DNA of 64,000 nt from Candidatus Altimarinota bacterium. GTDB lineage: Bacteria > Patescibacteriota > Gracilibacteria > JBDHUY01. The notes beneath the pieces were generated by a model. The model was not told the origin of the DNA. It worked only from the letters and a program-made list of their open reading frames with translations, and made no database searches. Numbering within the stretch: position 1 is the stretch's first letter; the number at the start of each line of letters is the position of its first letter. Positions 1,873 to 8,823 of the stretch are shown here, one piece after another. Location of the stretch: NCBI GenBank assembly GCA_039809385.1, contig JBDHUY010000001.1:134757-198756 (forward strand), given 5' to 3'. The translations under genes and the position numbers were made by a program.

Positions 1873-2919
1873 TCAGTTACTTTGCTTATCAATCAATCTT
1901 TTGATAGCAACTATATTTTCTTGCACTTCTTGAGGGTTAAATTGAGTTACAGCAATCCCAAATTGCTCATAATTATATTGAGATCTGTGCATTTGCCAAA
2001 TGAAATATTCATACAATTTTATTAATTCCTCTGTTTCACTATAAGACAACTTAAAATTATCTCCTCTTTTCTCATCAAGTAAAAAAAGGAGCTTTTGTGA
2101 TACACTTCTTGGTAAGTTTTGAATTAACAGGGAGGCTGTTTCGTATTCGGGTCCAGAAGTAATGAGTTGGCCGTGCTTGGTACAAATTGATCGTAGTAAT
2201 TTTATAAAATCCCGTATTACCATGAGTTGTATGGTCCTATTTGGACCATATTTAAAAGAAGACAGGTACTGAGCCCCGTTTTTAGAGTAGTAAGATTCAC
2301 CTTTTTCAGGATCATAATGACGTAATTCTTCTCCTTTACTTATTTGTTTACCAGAGGGCAGTATTTTGTAATACTCAGTAAAATAACTCTTTACTTGTTT
2401 TAAAACGCTTTTTCCATCCGAACCAACCAATTCCCCGAGCATTTTTCTTCGAGCCTCATCTAAAATTTGATTATTACCAGCTAGAACAGACGCATCTAAG
2501 ATACGTGACGGCCATTTTTGACCAGTTTCAAGATATTCAGATAGGCGTTCCTTATTAATATCTTTCTTCTCAAAGCCTTTAAAAAAAACACCGTGCTGGG
2601 ATTCAGTGCAACTTCTAATTTCCTGCTCAATCGTTGTAATCAAATCGTTTACCGCAGATATGCTTTTTGCCAATACAATTACCTCTAACTTTGAATCTGG
2701 CCCTTTTTCAAATCTCCCGTCACTACCAGTAGCCAATAATACTATATCATCTGTCTTATCGGTTACGCCTATAGTATGAAAAAAGTTGGTTACTAATTGC
2801 TGTAGTTCCAAGTTGTATTTTTGCAAATACTCAAAATATTTTTGAGGATTCTTTATATCGGGATTATCGATCTCTGGCAAAGTAGGACAAATCATTTTTG
2901 GACTTATAGCGTAGGACAT
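1873..2919 (-). CDS. Pol-beta-superfamily nucleotidyltransferase-like protein (GlnD/GlnE/DUF294-like), degenerate metal motif
   Basis: IVLLATGSDGRFEKGPDSKLEVIVL resembles the hG[GS]xGRxE-x-SDxD motif; RILDASVLAGN and FKYG resemble the DUF294 helical region. Confidence 0.6.
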   Translation of the reverse strand: MSYAISPKMICPTLPEIDNPDIKNPQKYFEYLQKYNLELQQLVTNFFHTIGVTDKTDDIVLLATGSDGRFEKGPDSKLEVIVLAKSISAVNDLITTIEQEIRSCTESQHGVFFKGFEKKDINKERLSEYLETGQKWPSRILDASVLAGNNQILDEARRKMLGELVGSDGKSVLKQVKSYFTEYYKILPSGKQISKGEELRHYDPEKGESYYSKNGAQYLSSFKYGPNRTIQLMVIRDFIKLLRSICTKHGQLITSGPEYETASLLIQNLPRSVSQKLLFLLDEKRGDNFKLSYSETEELIKLYEYFIWQMHRSQYNYEQFGIAVTQFNPQEVQENIVAIKRLIDKQSN

Positions 2920-2982
2920 ACTATTAATATATTTATATAATATTCTTCACAAAAAGCAACAAAAAAACCAAGAATTTTATCC

Positions 2983-3017
2983 AAAAAAACCTCTTCTGTA
3001 GGCGAAGAGGTTTTTTT
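2983..3017 (-). terminator. Intrinsic terminator (attenuator hairpin) upstream of the NTase gene
   Basis: Minus-strand RNA AAAAAAACCUCUUC-gccuaca-GAAGAGGUUUUUUU, about 60 nt before the ATG at 2919. Confidence 0.85.
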
Positions 3018-3045
3018 ATATAACATGCTGAAGGAAATCTCTCCG

Positions 3046-3144
3046 CTATGGTAAGAGGTTAATAATGACTACTCGAAGTACAGACCGCACTGGAGAGTTC
3101 GTTTTTGAAGGAAATCGTTGTAGTGTCTTATCCAGTGTAAACAT
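3046..3144 (-). CDS. Putative Val/Ile/Leu attenuator leader peptide, 32 aa (MFTLDKTLQRFPSKTNSPVRSVLRVVIINLLP)
   Basis: Hand-translated; 9 of the last 14 codons are V/I/L; lies between a sigma70-like promoter and the terminator. Confidence 0.7.
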   Translation of the reverse strand: MFTLDKTLQRFPSKTNSPVRSVLRVVIINLLP

Positions 3145-3169
3145 AAGAGATTGTATAAATACTGGATCT

Positions 3170-3197
3170 ATTCTAATTAGAGGGGAATAAAAGTCAA
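3170..3197 (-). promoter_or_regulatory. Sigma70-like promoter for the Val/Ile/Leu leader
   Basis: TTGACT (3197-3192), 16 nt spacer, TAGAAT (3175-3170) on the minus strand. Confidence 0.55.
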
Positions 3198-3204
3198 ATC
3201 TACG

Positions 3205-4144
3205 TTCTCTTTCAGATCAAATGCGACATAGCGAATTGATGAGGGGTGAGCATATTAAGGGATAAATGGGGTCGTTCGTGGTGGTAGTAATGGAGGTAGT
3301 CGTTGATCTTCTGCTGCAGCCAGGGCAGGTCTGATTTTTTGTATTTGATATGACCCACACATTCTTTCCTCAGGATTCCGTTAAATCGTTCGATAAATGC
3401 CTGTTCATTCTTTTTGTACGGTCGTGCTGTTCTGAGCCGTATCCCCAATCCTCTTACTCTTCTTTGCCACTCGGCTTTGAACTCCGGTCCGCCATCCCGT
3501 TGCGCGTGTTCCATGTGTCCATAAAACTTCAACTGTTCAATAAATGCTTCTTCTCCGGCTTTTGCTGTTAATCGGTCTTTCAAGATTACCGTTCCTTCTC
3601 TGGTACAAATATCAATCGACGTAAACGCATAAATATCTCCCAAATCCACCGTATCAAATTGTAATGCTTCCCGAGCTCTGCTTGCTTTCAATACCGTTTT
3701 ACCACGTACTACATTCTTCTTCCACTTACTGCGTAAAACATATTTCTCATTCAGAATTCGATAGATCGTGCTCCCCGAGACTTTTGTCCCATATTCTTTC
3801 TTCAAGAAATATTGAATCTTTTCTCCACAGCATTCGTGCCGCTCTTCCCGAATCTTCCAGATGTACCGTTTGGTTATCGGATCGGTTTCAGTTCTTTTTC
3901 GTTTCCCTTGCTTGGCCCGGGTAAAATCTCTCAAAAATATTTTGATCCCTTTCTTCTTCATTCCATTGATCCATCGATACACCGTGGCTCGGTGTACTCC
4001 TATCTGCTTTGGTATCTGCTCTGGTGATATTTCGTTCTTGTACAAATTCCAGCATACATACATCTTCTCTATTGTTTTCATGTCCATAGGATTAGTAGCT
4101 TCCTTCTACTATTCTACCCTATGTCGCATTTTTAAAGAGAATAC
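3205..4144 (-). mobile_element. IS481-like insertion sequence (ends approximate)
   Basis: Single DDE transposase; 13-bp inverted repeat AAATGCGACATAG (3219-3231) / CTATGTCGCATTT (4119-4131), outer TTCTCTTT/AAAGAGAA, right end reads TGT on the minus strand. No clear target duplication seen. Confidence 0.7.
3212..4087 (-). CDS. DDE transposase, rve integrase core (IS481-like)
   Basis: N-terminal HTH (IGVHRATVYRW), QFDTV, QRDGGPEF, QAFIERFNGILRKE, YYHHERPHLSLNMLTP. Confidence 0.9.
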   Translation of the reverse strand: MDMKTIEKMYVCWNLYKNEISPEQIPKQIGVHRATVYRWINGMKKKGIKIFLRDFTRAKQGKRKRTETDPITKRYIWKIREERHECCGEKIQYFLKKEYGTKVSGSTIYRILNEKYVLRSKWKKNVVRGKTVLKASRAREALQFDTVDLGDIYAFTSIDICTREGTVILKDRLTAKAGEEAFIEQLKFYGHMEHAQRDGGPEFKAEWQRRVRGLGIRLRTARPYKKNEQAFIERFNGILRKECVGHIKYKKSDLPWLQQKINDYLHYYHHERPHLSLNMLTPHQFAMSHLI

Positions 4145-4169
4145 AACGATCTATTATTTTTTATTAGAA

Positions 4170-5360
4170 TTACTCCGCGCTATTCTGAAGATTATTATAT
4201 ACATACTCTAACATTGAAGCTACGAGCGAATTGGTAACAATTGTATCCCGCAGTCGCTGTAGCTTCTGATGGACAAGTTCGCACACAAGCTCGTTTACCT
4301 TTTGAAACGTAACATAACGCTGCCATTCGATAATTTCCTGAGGAGTGGCATTCGTAATGCTGAGGTGCTCCCCCACTTGAATCGGAAATCCTCTCTTGCC
4401 GTGAATTACCTGAGCCAGATTCCCCTGGACGGAAGCCAAATATAACGCTCGTTTGGCATGATCGGTGATCATAGCCTTACTTCCATTCACAGCCACAATC
4501 GTACCTTTTTCTTCGCTAAAAGCACTCGTACGCTTGGCGACACACAGCAACGTACCTCTTGCATCCCGTACCGCGATACAACATCCTATCTGAAATTGCT
4601 CTTCATCCAACTCGACCCGCAGGTTACCAAATTCACAACTTTCGGTAATAACTCCCAATCGTAAGGGACTTTTTTCAATTTCCTCCTCTATCTTTTCGGT
4701 ATCAATGGGGTTGCCAAGTTGTTCGAAACCATATCCTCTGGCGATACCAGCTCCGGCCGGAGCGAATTTGCTCGCTCCGTCAAACACGTCACCCCCACGT
4801 TTTTCCGTAAGTCTCAGTCCGATCAGTTTTTCCAAAGAGATTTCATACACCTTTGCCTCGGCAAGTTTACCATGACCGTGAAACTCCGGCACCCGCATGT
4901 ACCAACGAGCCGGACCGACAAGTATCAATCCGGATGGGTATTGAATCATAACCCGTTTGCTTCCAACGTTGGAATCGTTCTCGTCATTTTGACCCACATG
5001 CGGATCGATAGTGATCACAAAAATAGCTTTACTACTCGATATTCTATCTTCAACGTATGCCGAAAGAGTGTGAGCAGCAGCTGTGAGGTTAAAGTTCTCT
5101 ACTTTGTTGGTACGAATGGGAATAGGATTATCCGCCAAGATATATTCCATGATCGCAGCCTGTTGGTTGAGCGATTCAGAATTGAGGTCGGCAATCGTAA
5201 TAATCTGACAGGACAATTGCTCACCAGATTCTTTGAAATCAGGAAGAACCGTGCCTTTATTGGGGAGATTGGAGCGAGAATTCGCATTTGGATATACCGA
5301 AGTTTCGGTCTGAACATCGGGAGTATCAGAAAAAGAAGTTTGGTTCTTTAGAGTAGACAT
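4170..5360 (-). CDS. DUF62 / SAM hydroxide adenosyltransferase (SAM hydrolase, chlorinase-fluorinase family), divergent
   Basis: Ordered family motifs: ITIADL, IFVITIDPHVG (VDPGVG), ILVGP, VFDGASKFAPAGAGIARG (TFHGRDVFAPAAA.LA.G), EFGNL (D.FGN), VAVNGS, LYLASVQGNLA. Confidence 0.75.
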   Translation of the reverse strand: MSTLKNQTSFSDTPDVQTETSVYPNANSRSNLPNKGTVLPDFKESGEQLSCQIITIADLNSESLNQQAAIMEYILADNPIPIRTNKVENFNLTAAAHTLSAYVEDRISSSKAIFVITIDPHVGQNDENDSNVGSKRVMIQYPSGLILVGPARWYMRVPEFHGHGKLAEAKVYEISLEKLIGLRLTEKRGGDVFDGASKFAPAGAGIARGYGFEQLGNPIDTEKIEEEIEKSPLRLGVITESCEFGNLRVELDEEQFQIGCCIAVRDARGTLLCVAKRTSAFSEEKGTIVAVNGSKAMITDHAKRALYLASVQGNLAQVIHGKRGFPIQVGEHLSITNATPQEIIEWQRYVTFQKVNELVCELVHQKLQRLRDTIVTNSLVASMLEYVYNNLQNSAE

Positions 5361-5383
5361 ACCAGAAAAAGAAATGAGATAAT

Positions 5384-5414
5384 AAAAAACAGCCTCCGAA
5401 ATGGTCGAAGGCTG
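5384..5414 (-). terminator. Intrinsic terminator (attenuator hairpin) upstream of the DUF62 gene
   Basis: Minus-strand RNA CAGCCUUCGA-ccauu-UCGGAGGCUG-UUUUUU, 10-bp stem with one G:U, ending 23 nt before the ATG at 5360. Confidence 0.85.
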
Positions 5415-5439
5415 CTTGTTTTAAAGGGGATAACGCACT

Positions 5440-5559
5440 TTAAACCATTTGCCTCCGAAGCAGACGCATCATCATCATTATCGCCATCATCATGTACCCG
5501 GTACGACAAATGTTGTTAACCGAAACTTCCTGTGATGGAATGTTTGAATACCGGGACAT
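5440..5559 (-). CDS. Putative methionine attenuator leader peptide, 39 aa (MSRYSNIPSQEVSVNNICRTGYMMMAIMMMMRLLRRQMV)
   Basis: Hand-translated; 7 AUG codons in a 9-codon window, directly followed by a copy of the terminator 3' arm (UUCGGAGGC). Confidence 0.85.
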   Translation of the reverse strand: MSRYSNIPSQEVSVNNICRTGYMMMAIMMMMRLLRRQMV

Positions 5560-5583
5560 AGAAAGAAAAAAGATTTTTACATC

Positions 5584-5611
5584 ATCATAATCGTCAAAAA
5601 AAGTTTGTCAA
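5584..5611 (-). promoter_or_regulatory. Sigma70-like promoter for the Met leader
   Basis: TTGACA (5611-5606), 16 nt spacer, TATGAT (5589-5584) on the minus strand, 24 nt before the leader ATG. Confidence 0.65.
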
Positions 5612-5904
5612 AAAATTCCCGAAGAAATTCCTACAATTCATTCTATTCTTGTAACAAGTGTATTATTATGAGAGTTTATACAATAATTAGTAGCTTATAA
5701 TTTAATACCTCCATCCTTGAAGGCAGATCAGTATCATTTTCAAGTTTTCCGTGATTTTTTAATTTCACCGAAAATGATAAAATAAAGCAACTATAAAACT
5801 TCATTCATTCTTCTTGCCACCGCAAACCCCGCTGCTATAATGTCCCTGCATTTTTAAGATGGAAAAGTCGGAGCAGTCGCTCTGAGAACAAAGAAATGCT
5901 GAAT

Positions 5905-5979
5905 GCCGGAGTAGCTCAGTGGTAGAGCAATGCTTTCGTAAAGCAGTGGTCGTGGGTTCAACTCCCATCTCCGGCTCCA
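5905..5979 (+). tRNA. tRNA-Thr (anticodon CGT)
   Basis: GCCGGAG/CTCCGGC acceptor stem, TAGCTCAGTGGTAGAGC D-arm, anticodon loop TTCGTAA, GGTTCAAC T-loop, encoded CCA. Confidence 0.95.
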
Positions 5980-6330
5980 GGGGGAAATAGTATAAAGTAT
6001 CTGGTATTAGGTATCTAGTATAGTGCCGAATAAGTAAACCACGTGCGGAAACATGAGTCCGGGGTTTTTACAGATAAGGACGTTTGACTCTTGACCTCCA
6101 AGACCTGTCCATTCACCCATTCCCGAGTCCTCATGCCCCTGCTGTTGGCTGTAAGCTGTCAGCTCTGTGTTTTGGCTAATCGCCACTACCCGCCTGTCAC
6201 CGCTGTAAGCTGTTCGCTGACCGCTGAACGCCGCCCGCCTGATTTGTCCCTTGCCTTTTACCTGCTCTTTTTCTATAGTAGAACACGCTTATCAAACGAC
6301 CTCTTATTTTCTATTTATCTAAAACCTGTT

Positions 6331-8823
6331 ATGAAGACCCGTTCGCGTTTTATCCTCATCCTGATCGTATTTGTATTTTCCTTGCTGGTAGCGTTGCCTT
6401 CAAGCGTAAAAACCACCGCCTTCCGCGCGGTAGGACTGGAGAGTAACGGGGTTGCCCAGTGGTTGAGCAACCAGCAGATCAGCCTCGGACTGGATTTACA
6501 GGGAGGTACGCAGCTCGATTACAAAGTCGACCTCAGAGACGTCCCCCAAAGAGATCGAAACCAGGTCATCGAGGGAGTCAAAGCCGTATTTGAAAAACGA
6601 GTTAACGGTCTGGGAGTATCCGAACCGAATATCTATACCTCCGTGGTAGGCAATGAAGAGCATATTATCGTTGAACTCGCCGGTATTACCGATATCAATG
6701 AGGCAAAAGCCACGATCGGGAAGGTGATTCAGCTCGAATTCAAAGTACAGAACGATGCCCAGGAATCGGATCAAAAGAGCCAGATCAAAAAGCAAGCCGA
6801 AGCGGTCCTGGTAGAAGCCAAAGCTAGCCCTCAAAACTTCGAGACGATCGGCAAGGAAAACGAAAAAGCCAGCCGGGTCGAGTACAAACAGGAAAGCAAC
6901 TTTCTGGACGCTGCTCCCGGTCCTGTCCAGAAAATTCTTCCCACGCTGGCTGAGAATCAGGTGAATCCGGAACTGGAGGAAGGCCAAACCGAGAGCACGT
7001 TCGAATTTGTAGACGGACAGGTACGGGAAGTACCGGCCAAGCAGGGGTACTTTATTGTAAAAGGCATATCCAGCGAACCGGTTTTGCGACCCGATCCTAA
7101 AAATGCGGAAGATTTTCTAAAGGCAGGTCAGGAAGTATCGACTGACAAAAAAGTAGACCTCGGCTTCGTGCGCAAAGGAGACTTGGATCCCGAACTTCAG
7201 GACAAAGTATTTTCCCTCTCGGCCGGCAATATTTCGGATGTCCTGGAAACATCCAAAGGCTACTATATTGCCAAACTGGTTCAGACGCTTCCTAAGGACG
7301 AGGAAATGATCCGGGCGGATAGTATCCTGATCAAACTCAAACCGGAACAACCGACCAAGACCATCGATGCCAGTCTACCCGATGCCGAAAAGCAGAAATT
7401 GGAAGAAGAAAATACAAAGATTCTGGCTGACAACGGGAGTGCCAAAAAATATAACGAGGAGGAAGCACCGAAACGAGCGCAGGAAGCCCTGGAAAAAGCC
7501 AAAGCCGATCCTGGCAGTTTTGCCGAGTTGGTAAATCAATATTCCGACGATACCGCCGCGAAGGCACACGGAGGCGATATGGGTTTCTTTACGAAAGACC
7601 AGCGCGCTCCCGAAATCGCGGAAAAAGCCTTTGGCGCCAATAAGGGCGACCTGATTCCGGAAGCAATCAAAACCAGCGAAGGATACTATATCCTGCGCGT
7701 AACCGATAAAAAGGCCAAAGACGAAGAGATTGCCCGGGTTCAGATGATTCAGATCTGTGGAAACGAGCAAACCGGCTGTACGGCAAGCCTAAGTAAGAGC
7801 GAAGCCAAAACCAAAGCCGACGAGACCCTCAAACGAGTGCGGGAAGAAAAGAAATACACCTATGCCTACATTTACTTTTCAACCAATCCTGATCCGTGGA
7901 AACCGGCTCTGGCCACGAATCCTATCACCAAAGAACAAGAACCGCTGACCGGAAAATTCTTCAAACGGGCCGATCTGCAATACGATTCGCGCACCTTCGA
8001 ACCTGTCGTAGTTATCTCGTTTAACGACGAAGGCGCCAAAATGTTCGAAGAGTTAACCGGCCGCTTGGTCAATCAACCTCTCGCTATTTTCGTCGGAGGA
8101 GAACTGATTTCGGCTCCGACGGTCAACGACAAGATCAGCGGGGGAAACGCGACCATCTCGGGACGATTCAGCGACGAGGAAGCCGCTAAATTACAGCGTG
8201 ATTTGAATGCCGGCGCGATCCCGGCTCCGATTACGCTGGTCGGCGAACAGGAGATCGGCGGATCGGTCGGGACCGAGGCTCTCAATGCCTCGCTGAAGGC
8301 CGGATTGATCGGCATACTAGTACTGATTCTCTTCATGATTTTGTATTACCGACTACCTGGTTTGATCGCCAGCTTAGCTTTAGGGCTCTATGTAATTGTT
8401 TTCATTGCTTTCATCAAACTCTGGCCCGGCATGGTCATGACCCTGGCCGGAATTGCCGGTGTGATCCTGTCGATCGGTGTAGCGGTAGACGGCAATATTC
8501 TCATATTCGAACGCGTACGTGAAGAGCTTTCTCTTGGCAAGACGCTGAATGCGGCACTGAAAGCCGGATTTGAACGAGCCTGGACTTCGATCCGGGATTC
8601 CAACTCGTCTTCGATTTTGACCGCAATCATCCTGTTGTGGTTTGGAACCAGCATTATCAAAGGATTTGCCTTCATGCTGATCGTCGGCGTAGTCTTGAGC
8701 TTATTCAGCGCCATCTACGTAACCAGAACGTTACTATACGTTTTCAATACGTCGCGGTTTGAAAAGAACCTGTTCCTGTGGGGAGCCAAGAAACCGGTCG
8801 CCGAAGAAGGCAAGAAGAAATGA
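6331..8823 (+). CDS. secD: Protein translocase subunit SecD with inserted parvulin/rotamase domains
   Basis: LGLDLQGG, KRVNGLGVSEP, LISAPTV, LNAGAIPAP, GVAVDGNILIFERVREE, IRDSN. Probable start is ATG 6331 rather than TTG 6091. Confidence 0.95.
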   Translation: MKTRSRFILILIVFVFSLLVALPSSVKTTAFRAVGLESNGVAQWLSNQQISLGLDLQGGTQLDYKVDLRDVPQRDRNQVIEGVKAVFEKRVNGLGVSEPNIYTSVVGNEEHIIVELAGITDINEAKATIGKVIQLEFKVQNDAQESDQKSQIKKQAEAVLVEAKASPQNFETIGKENEKASRVEYKQESNFLDAAPGPVQKILPTLAENQVNPELEEGQTESTFEFVDGQVREVPAKQGYFIVKGISSEPVLRPDPKNAEDFLKAGQEVSTDKKVDLGFVRKGDLDPELQDKVFSLSAGNISDVLETSKGYYIAKLVQTLPKDEEMIRADSILIKLKPEQPTKTIDASLPDAEKQKLEEENTKILADNGSAKKYNEEEAPKRAQEALEKAKADPGSFAELVNQYSDDTAAKAHGGDMGFFTKDQRAPEIAEKAFGANKGDLIPEAIKTSEGYYILRVTDKKAKDEEIARVQMIQICGNEQTGCTASLSKSEAKTKADETLKRVREEKKYTYAYIYFSTNPDPWKPALATNPITKEQEPLTGKFFKRADLQYDSRTFEPVVVISFNDEGAKMFEELTGRLVNQPLAIFVGGELISAPTVNDKISGGNATISGRFSDEEAAKLQRDLNAGAIPAPITLVGEQEIGGSVGTEALNASLKAGLIGILVLILFMILYYRLPGLIASLALGLYVIVFIAFIKLWPGMVMTLAGIAGVILSIGVAVDGNILIFERVREELSLGKTLNAALKAGFERAWTSIRDSNSSSILTAIILLWFGTSIIKGFAFMLIVGVVLSLFSAIYVTRTLLYVFNTSRFEKNLFLWGAKKPVAEEGKKK

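Follow-up and report, generated by a model that had tools for sequence, protein, structure and literature searches.

A 64,000-nt stretch from Candidatus Altimarinota bacterium (GTDB lineage Patescibacteriota; Gracilibacteria; JBDHUY01; assembly GCA_039809385.1, contig JBDHUY010000001.1, positions 134,757 to 198,756), which we refer to as the window, carries on its minus strand (5611-5384) a short leader region upstream of a gene for a DUF62-family protein (5360-4170). We favour an interpretation, with a probability of roughly 0.78, in which this region is a ribosome-mediated transcription attenuator that reads methionine codons and controls the DUF62 gene. The interpretation is carried by a complete set of sequence elements and their geometry, by the rarity of this arrangement in the genome, by its recurrence with co-varying helices upstream of related genes, and by the DUF62 fold of the gene product.

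All elements of the proposed attenuator, as well as the DUF62 gene, lie on the minus strand, and their coordinates are those of the window:

5611-5606 and 5589-5584, minus strand: sigma-70-like promoter, TTGACA and TATGAT with a 16-nt spacer, agreeing with the consensus at 11 of 12 positions
5559-5440, minus strand: leader open reading frame (ORF) of 39 codons, MSRYSNIPSQEVSVNNICRTGYMMMAIMMMMRLLRRQMV, with its TAA stop codon at 5442-5440
5493-5467, minus strand: Met run, leader codons 23-31, with 7 AUG in 9 codons (codons 23-25 and 28-31, with an Ala and an Ile codon between)
5458-5451, minus strand: segment 2, the antiterminator strand (TCGGAGGC / UCGGAGGC), in leader codons 34-37
5417-5405, minus strand: segment 3, the 5' arm of the terminator, which pairs with segment 2 in the antiterminator and with segment 4 in the terminator
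5399-5387, minus strand: segment 4, the 3' arm of the terminator, with a T6 run at 5389-5384, as given by the terminator scan
about 5560-5546 with about 5504-5491, minus strand: long-range helix between the start-codon region and the sequence just before and into the first codon of the Met run, present in the minimum free energy (MFE) and centroid folds
5360-4170, minus strand: regulated gene of the DUF62 family, 396 codons, with its ATG at 5360 and its end at 4170

The initial annotation of this DNA, made from its letters alone, had proposed an attenuator on the basis of the promoter, the Met-rich ORF, segment 2, the terminator hairpin and the DUF62 start, and all of these are present where it had placed them. 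The promoter has the joint best score of our promoter scan within 3000-8000 and would set the start of the transcript near 5577. The leader ORF begins about 18 nt past this presumed start, behind a 5' untranslated region that is rich in T, free of G and devoid of a Shine-Dalgarno (SD) sequence. The missing SD sequence is no objection to the leader, because this genome does not use such sequences: an SD-like motif is found upstream of 40 of 883 long ORFs (4.5%) as against a background of 11.8%, and start regions genome-wide are T-rich and G-poor like that of the leader, with T at position -1 in 54%. In the same genome, TGA serves as a stop codon (194 of the 883 long ORFs). Two loci from other genomes of the class, L027 and L010 (genomes G360 and G291), have in-frame TGA in acidic coding regions, as for a recoded stop, and to judge from such frames the class mixes standard-code genomes with genomes that appear to reassign TGA.

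The Met run of the window is followed after 8 nt by segment 2, and this after another 8 nt by the stop codon. As read from the sequence, segment 2 repeats the terminator 3' arm (5399-5392) letter for letter and is the complement of GCCTTCGA (5412-5405). The terminator-like hairpin as a whole (5417-5387) has 13 pairs including A-U and G-U extensions, 6 of them G-C, with a loop of 5, and its energy when folded alone is -18.6 kcal/mol. The long-range helix of the window could be a pause or commitment element; it is not conserved in the other leader loci, two of which (L002 and L004) pair codons 3-6 with segment 2 instead. A second ATGATGATG followed by TAA is found at 5588-5577 of the minus strand, where it overlaps the -10 hexamer upstream of the presumed transcription start, and this could be a coincidence, a duplication remnant, or an indication of a true start farther upstream. 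Contigs of four DNA runs are identical to the window wherever they cover 4170-5650, with no population variation.

Translation of the leader, stalling of ribosomes on it and termination at the hairpin are suggested by this layout, and we propose that the process would operate as follows. After transcription has begun, a ribosome would enter the 39-codon leader. With ample Met-tRNA(Met), it would pass the AUG run and reach the TAA, where its footprint would hide segment 2 (UCGGAGGC); segments 3 and 4 would then pair, the hairpin with its U6 run would form, and the attenuated transcript would be expected to end near 5384. With scarce Met-tRNA(Met), the ribosome would stall within the run of 7 AUG in 9 codons, the proposed stalling site, so leaving segment 2, 8 nt beyond, free to capture segment 3 once this had been made. 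No terminator would then form, and the polymerase would enter the DUF62 gene. The enzyme would cleave S-adenosylmethionine (SAM) at C5' to adenosine and L-methionine, and, as the amino acid released would be the one whose shortage was sensed, the feedback loop would be closed.

The leader contains the only intergenic Met run in the genome of the window. When all six frames of the whole 1.87-Mb genome are considered, 6 stretches with at least 5 Met in 9 codons are found. One of these (C2:194855) is out of frame within a long ORF, and three others, on C3 at about 23.6-23.9 kb and 172.7 kb, are MMMKDG-like repeats, the C3 frames probably representing Met-rich proteins unrelated to the leader. A more general scan took in ORFs of 8-45 codons that lie outside long frames and in which one residue fills 5 or more of 7 positions; it gave 19 matches in this genome, among which the leader is the sole Met case and the sole one with a clear hairpin and T run. 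The pattern ATGATGN{0,9}ATGATGATG finds the leader only in genome G061, and the leader plus one out-of-frame site in G062; it occurs in 237 of 401 genomes of the window's class, mostly as Asp-codon repeats, some of them in genomes with in-frame TGA. Among several hundred pattern matches, 30 loci were inspected, and none of these showed a convincing Met-run leader before another type of gene.

At the level of RNA, the 222-nt leader of the window is more stable than its shuffles (z = -2.9, with 1 of 200 shuffles equally stable), and the duplex of segments 2 and 3, at -13.5 kcal/mol, is reached by 28 and 25 of 1000 dinucleotide shuffles in two runs. Scans for a promoter alone or a terminator alone were no better than chance within 3000-8000, with 8 promoter sites against 7.1 expected and 6 terminator sites against 5.7 expected. 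The weight of the argument therefore rests on the combination of elements and on their conservation rather than on single-element scans.

Recurrence and co-variation of the leader

Upstream DNA was read for 20 distinct DUF62-family loci, found by peptide-pattern scans and by genome searches. The pattern scans gave three homologous loci, L002 and L003 (labelled Candidatus Peregrinibacteria) and L004 (a metagenome contig), and in all three a Met-run ORF lies directly upstream of the gene. The genome searches gave 5 and 11 positives among 205 genomes from the order of G061, 4 and 5 among 401 from the window's class, and 5 among 301 from the phylum. Duplicates were merged (L005-L007, L039, L040 and L045-L050 repeat earlier loci; L060 equals L058, L061 equals L057 and L063 equals L046), and three rows were dropped: L052 (E = 0.002), whose 120-aa frame is interrupted by a TAG, and L054 and L055, which are partial matches (E = 0.004-0.007) to proteins of about 1300 aa. 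A scan of viral contigs gave no further contexts for the relatives P0002 and P0005-P0015.

In 9 of the 20 loci the gene is preceded by a short Met-run ORF and then a terminator. The runs of these loci are listed here together with the outcome of a pairing test, given as how many of 1000 dinucleotide shuffles attain the energy observed for the duplex between segments 2 and 3:

Window: 7 Met in 9 codons; 25 of 1000
L002: MMMSMMM; 1 of 1000
L004: MMMSMMM; 1 of 1000
L003: 8 Met in 12 codons; 2 of 1000
L043: MMMM; 2 of 1000
L057: MQMMM; 7 of 1000
L067: MMAM; 73 of 1000
L041: MMAMMM; 75 of 1000
L056: MFMMM; 257 of 1000

Conservation of the Met run in homologous leaders, on which the initial annotation had made its proposal depend, is thus found well beyond the window, and on a tree of 16 proteins the clade of the window protein (7 rows, support 99/100) has the leader in 6 of 7. 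Leaders also occur outside this clade (L043 and L057); their distribution on the tree requires at least 3 state changes, and 11 of 500 label shuffles gave an equally good fit. The leaders of L057 and L067, the latter from another class, precede DUF62 genes of ordinary length, so that the leader is tied to the DUF62 family and not only to its long form.

The leader peptides, 10-39 residues in length, are conserved only in the Met run, with Arg-Arg codons also kept in the long clade. The codons that interrupt the runs differ from locus to locus (Ala-Ile, Ser, Asp/Pro, Ala, Phe, Gln) and are always whole codons, and only the Met frame opens with an ATG and closes next to segment 2 at every one of the nine loci. 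Readings of the run in the Asp frame and in the stop frame were rejected, as neither yields an ORF that is conserved across these loci. Promoter-like sites agreeing at 10-12 of 12 positions precede the leaders of L002, L003, L041, L043 and L057, while the promoter scan found none before that of L067. Terminators were identified by the scan in the window, L002, L003, L041, L043, L057 and L067, and by eye, with folding of the hairpins, in L004 and L056. In L003 the first listed ATG overlaps the -10 box, and the likely start is the ATG at 2528, giving a 29-codon ORF. The gene start of L041 is ambiguous, with an ATG 30 nt past the terminator in another frame that is closed by TAG, and the first in-frame ATG about 90 nt past the terminator.

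Within each of the nine leaders, the best partner of the terminator 5' arm is always segment 2. This segment is a near copy of the terminator 3' arm of the same lineage, while its sequence differs between lineages (UCGGAGGC, GCGAAGG, GCGGAGG, GGAGAG, CGGGGG and GGCGGG). Changes in segments 2, 3 and 4 go hand in hand. Where the window has U at the start of segment 2, A at the end of segment 3 and U at the start of segment 4, these bases are G, C and G in L002, L003 and L004. This co-variation was read by eye, because MAFFT misplaced the window hairpin by one column and the leaders are too divergent between lineages. The spacing is also retained, as segment 2 begins 6-11 nt past the Met run and the stop codon is 0-12 nt from segment 2 in the nine loci. 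In 6 of the 9 loci the pairing is significant (at most 25 of 1000 shuffles). Recurrence in 9 of 20 loci and an alternative pairing that co-varies between lineages support the attenuator put forward in the initial annotation, which had suggested a search for covarying hairpins in homologous leaders.

The DUF62 protein and the supply of methionine

The regulated gene encodes a long-form DUF62 protein of 396 aa, in which about 50 aa at the N-terminus are disordered and about 55 aa at the C-terminus form a helical extension. A profile of its clade matches the DUF62 structures 2zbu, 2wr8 and 1wu8 over both domains (E = 5e-17 to 8e-17), and also 22uy, labelled (R)-S-adenosyl-L-methionine hydrolase. 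The AlphaFold model of the protein (mean predicted local distance difference test, pLDDT, 75; predicted TM-score, pTM, 0.70) has 7 Foldseek matches at E <= 0.001, all of them DUF62 or SalL chains, and shows the two-domain DUF62 fold. By profile and by fold, the gene encodes a divergent DUF62 protein. The fold is common to PH0463, TM DUF62 (2zbu), the MJ1651 (R)-SAM hydrolase (22uy), the SalL chlorinase and the fluorinase, and the TM-scores of the window protein against DUF62 and SalL structures are 0.70-0.79 when normalised to the targets. It differs from its DUF62 relatives in being about 100-170 residues longer, owing to the disordered N-terminus, a 9-residue insert after DPHVG and the C-terminal helices. 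Two of the homologous proteins exceed the cut-off of the Pfam family SAM_HAT_N (L002 with 38.7 and L003 with 30.0 bits), and the genome search counts the window protein as a member ("yes", 27 with neighbours in frame). Close relatives are few, with 8 among 5.8 billion clustered proteins, and 9 clusters at E <= 1e-30, the query included, among 1.84 billion representatives.

DUF62 enzymes hydrolyse SAM to adenosine and Met, with a preference for the (R,S) epimer (bioRxiv 10.1101/2025.08.29.672840; PMC12120602). The accessible text of the first of these reports gives removal of (R,S)-SAM as the purpose of the family (bioRxiv 10.1101/2025.08.29.672840), while the other, as far as its accessible text goes, describes the physiological role as still debated (PMC12120602).

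The genome of the window, which is 95% complete, contains MetK, and no member of the MetE, S-methyl_trans (homocysteine S-methyltransferase domain) or MetQ families was found in it. The attenuated gene is its only DUF62 gene, and a Met-releasing enzyme induced by a shortage of Met-tRNA would fit this presumptive metabolic picture; the auxotrophic symbiont which the initial annotation invoked is likewise a putative one. A SAM-I riboswitch was not found in the genome. The T-box model has only 2 matches there, both away from the leader and both with about 26 bits as compared to a gathering score of 93. One of them (C2:36229-36426; L068 230-427) is about 760 nt before an ORF for a class-I aminoacyl-tRNA synthetase that carries an inserted or fused histidine-phosphatase domain (tRNA-synt_1 39-529, His_Phos_1 533-700). 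The other (C14:552-730; L069 153-331) lies ahead of a gene of the Ham1 family and of one for a protein carrying an HGTP_anticodon domain.

One tentative extension, to which we would give slightly less than an even chance, is that in Met-auxotrophic Patescibacteria the DUF62 enzyme serves as an emergency valve, induced by starvation under control of the attenuator, that turns the SAM pool into Met for translation. The SAM consumed may be the cell's own, the inactive (R,S) epimer, or that of a host. If true, this would give the DUF62 family a defined purpose in vivo, and no complete leader-peptide attenuator would have been described before this one, either for methionine or for the phylum. The regulatory logic would also provide an independent clue to DUF62 function, as a gene induced by low Met-tRNA should make methionine.

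Ribosome-dependent folding and competing explanations

The leaders were folded with a ribosome mask of 28 nt (-15 to +12 relative to the A-site codon). When transcripts are truncated ahead of the terminator 3' arm and the ribosome is on early Met codons, segments 2 and 3 pair in 8 loci (all but L056); in the window they do so without a ribosome as well as with a ribosome at Met codons 23-31. Placing the ribosome at the stop codon hides segment 2 and lets the terminator form in the window, L003, L043 and L067, and the mask then extends over all or most of segment 2 in 5 of 9 loci (these four and L056). L003 and L067 switch even at equilibrium in the full transcript, as does L043 when the ribosome is at the first Met codon. 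A local hairpin between codons after the run and segment 2 (segments 1:2) is found in 7 of 9 loci, and its segment 1 would be hidden by a stalled ribosome. Folding with and without a ribosome footprint had been suggested by the initial annotation; the truncated transcripts adopt the pairing which its model calls for in the stalled state, while the full-length fold of the window retains the terminator throughout.

Several observations weigh against the attenuator interpretation. Eleven of the 20 loci are without such a leader (L042, L044, L046, L051, L053, L058, L059, L062, L064, L065 and L066), including L042, which belongs to the same clade as the window protein, and L064, for which only 102 nt of upstream DNA are available. 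Since the loci are homologues of one another and L002 nearly duplicates L004, the independent lineages number only about 6-7. For the pairing of segments 2 and 3, L041 and L067 give marginal values and L056 a non-significant one. A ribosome placed at the stop codon masks no more than the final few bases of segment 2 in L002, L004, L041 and L057. The full-length MFE fold keeps the terminator at any mask position in the window, L002, L004 and L041; as equilibrium favours the terminator, the model needs a kinetic argument, namely that segments 2 and 3 have paired by the time segment 4 is made. In the trp paradigm, the order of synthesis decides between alternative hairpins. The segment 1:2 hairpin is inconsistent, since it beats its shuffles only in L043, L056 and L067, and a clear segment 1 is absent from the window, L003 and L057, so that untranslated transcripts of the window would read through in the model. 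On the side of the protein, the window sequence scores 26.0 bits with SAM_HAT_N, just under the cut-off of 26.3. Its Asp119 (the Asp of DPxVG, here DPHVG) and the following Arg136 are conserved, and these belong to the Asp-Arg-His catalytic triad of DUF62 enzymes such as PH0463. The His of the FHGRD motif, present in L043 and L058, is replaced by Asp (Asp194) in the long clade and in L057, and because of this replacement hydrolysis of SAM by the window protein is only putative.

Other explanations for the leader have to be considered. The short ORF might encode a functional Met-rich micropeptide that acts as precursor, partner or substrate of the DUF62 protein, with the hairpin setting how much transcript is made for the peptide relative to the enzyme. 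Peptide-natural-product clusters likewise combine a small ORF, a partial terminator and an enzyme gene, and both the Met run and the following Arg-Arg are conserved in the long clade. However, the peptide is not conserved outside the run and varies in length from 10 to 39 residues, and the Arg-Arg codons are at the same time the antiterminator strand, changing where the terminator arm changes (L043, L057 and L067). There are no modifying enzymes nearby, the neighbours being a GNAT protein, a Wzy_C/TPR protein, the 107-aa ORF described below and a transposase. As such a peptide would also leave the complementarity between segments 2 and 3 unexplained, we consider this possibility improbable.

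We attach the same low probability to an arrest peptide that depends on a ligand, as TnaC and SpeFL do. Here the nascent Met-rich chain, together with free Met or SAM inside the exit tunnel, would stall the ribosome, so that the gene would be induced by excess and not by shortage. Arrest peptides are also found ahead of metabolic genes and act through transcription termination, and induction of a SAM-degrading enzyme by an excess of SAM would make sense. Such a mechanism needs a specific, conserved peptide, though, whereas only Met codons recur in these leaders, in runs of 3-8 and at a variable distance from the N-terminus. The geometry, with the run just upstream of segment 2, is that of an attenuator that responds to hungry codons.

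A structured RNA that is not translated, in which the AUG repeats would be an RNA motif and the hairpins would respond to a bound ligand or protein, appears a shade less probable still. Met has a single codon, so that conservation of the run is also conservation of nucleotides, and the window leader does beat its shuffles (z = -2.9). On the other hand, there is no conserved structure around the run, the upstream helices vary by locus, and the ATGs are kept in one frame across whole-codon spacers, together with an ATG start and a stop by segment 2, in 9 of 9 loci. No Rfam family was found over threshold on the window or on 7 other leaders. Within 3000-8000 of the window, Rfam gave only tRNA at E <= 1. 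On the 7 other leader loci it gave only Leu_leader, with 30.3 bits in L002 (2594-2661) and 30.6 bits in L004 (2167-2244). These matches, to parts of the terminators, are below the gathering score of 50 (E about 0.014) and probably reflect a shared hairpin architecture.

The least probable explanation is coincidence, that is, an (ATG)n repeat beside an ordinary terminator or a His-codon ORF on the opposite strand (5449-5535, plus strand, HHHHYRHHH): slippage can create ATG repeats, a second ATGATGATG-TAA does lie within the -10 box (5588-5577) and a His run can indeed be read on the opposite strand (MPPKQTHHHHYRHHH...), but the layout is found in 9 loci that differ in sequence and keep one orientation to the DUF62 gene, the runs are broken by different whole codons and are not pure repeats, and the T runs are on the DUF62 strand. 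A His leader on the plus strand was also rejected as a candidate in its own right. Its frame is not conserved, the reverse-strand ORFs of L002 and L004 give no His run, and nothing related to histidine is found downstream on the plus strand, only tRNA-Thr and a SecDF-like ORF.

Comparison with known leaders and genomic surroundings

The Met-codon attenuator proposed here resembles the enterobacterial attenuators (trpL, hisL, pheL, thrL, leuL, ilvL) in having a promoter-proximal short ORF with a run of codons for one amino acid, and an antiterminator and a terminator that share one strand, with a stop codon so placed that a terminating ribosome would block the antiterminator. As in those systems, the controlled product would supply the sensed amino acid, to judge from the DUF62 family to which it belongs. 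The differences are that AUG is the codon sensed, that the leader has no SD sequence and is nearly leaderless in L003, L057 and L067, and that a single, putatively SAM-cleaving enzyme is regulated rather than a biosynthetic operon. Unlike in the enterobacterial cases, a clear segment 1 is absent in the window, L003 and L057, and no Rfam leader family exceeds its threshold.

SAM riboswitches, Met T-boxes and MetJ likewise sense the status of Met or SAM, with premature termination as in the S-box and the T-box. In contrast to SAM riboswitches and T-boxes, the proposed sensor here is the translating ribosome and not an RNA that binds a ligand or a tRNA.

A Met leader-peptide attenuator by that name was not found in the literature searched, which omits most subscription journals. 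The idea of a Met leader peptide is nevertheless already in print. In Campylobacter jejuni, the accessible text describes MetL, a peptide of 20 aa with 3 Met codons that precedes metBA, and a short RNA that ends after its stop codon (PMC3847290); translation-initiation peaks have been reported at the MetL start codon, as has a further short ORF, CJsORF19 (MMYQMR), before a gene for a D-methionine transporter (PMC11955535). The metL of Streptomyces lividans, before metNIQ, has Met codons interleaved with Cys codons, and a typical Rho-independent terminator is described as missing (PMC8079986). As far as the accessible parts of these reports go, they share with the present leaders a short Met-enriched ORF before Met-related genes and a proposed coupling of Met-tRNA to read-through. 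They differ in having 2-3 Met codons, in preceding genes for biosynthesis or import rather than DUF62 genes, and in coming from other phyla, and the same parts contain no antiterminator analysis, comparative co-variation or mechanistic characterisation. Polycysteine leaderless ORFs of mycobacteria, which respond to Cys (bioRxiv 10.1101/834739), and the short SD-less or leaderless Cys leader ORFs of actinobacteria (PMC1262725) resemble the Met leaders in that runs of codons for a sulfur amino acid control downstream genes. These Cys leaders lack an intrinsic terminator, as is stated for the latter (PMC1262725), whereas all Met leaders described here have a hairpin, a T run and a competing antiterminator. 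Further Met cases may be among the 14 putative leader peptides listed for Deinococcus (PMC4007540).

The claim of novelty made in the initial annotation therefore went too far, since Met leader peptides had already been proposed for C. jejuni and S. lividans. What is new is the complete and co-varying terminator/antiterminator design, the much denser Met runs, the phylum and the regulated enzyme. Classical ribosome-mediated attenuation would thus be extended to methionine with a complete design that has comparative support, and to small-genome bacteria of the candidate phyla that use no SD sequences. To our knowledge, almost nothing is known about gene regulation in such bacteria. The element is compact (about 230 nt) and could serve as a Met-responsive genetic part.

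The surroundings of the gene suggest that the DUF62 gene and its leader may have been acquired by transfer. A transposase gene (3212-4087, minus strand; domains rve_3, rve_2 and HTH_32) lies directly downstream of the DUF62 gene, the G+C content is 38-42% across 2001-6000 as compared to 45-50% in most of the window, and the one genome searched from the window's own family did not carry the gene (0 of 1). In L002 (4025-4348) and L003 (4035-4358), an ORF of 107 aa without a Pfam match begins about 65 nt after the long-form DUF62 gene and may be co-transcribed with it. At the corresponding place in L004, near the end of the contig, only a 59-aa ORF with a TTG start (3666-3845) is listed, and in the window the transposase stands in place of the 107-aa ORF. 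Beyond the transposase, the window has an ORF of 348 aa without a Pfam family (1873-2919, minus strand).

On the other side of the leader, a promoter-like site on the plus strand (5814-5841; 11 of 12 positions, with the TG of an extended -10) diverges from the attenuator promoter and is located 64 nt before the gene for tRNA-Thr(CGU) (5905-5979, plus strand). A tRNA-like sequence, recognised by eye, was also noted about 10-20 nt from the start of an ordinary DUF62 gene in L058 (about 1190-1270) and L059 (about 1385-1470), two loci without a leader from two genomes of one family.

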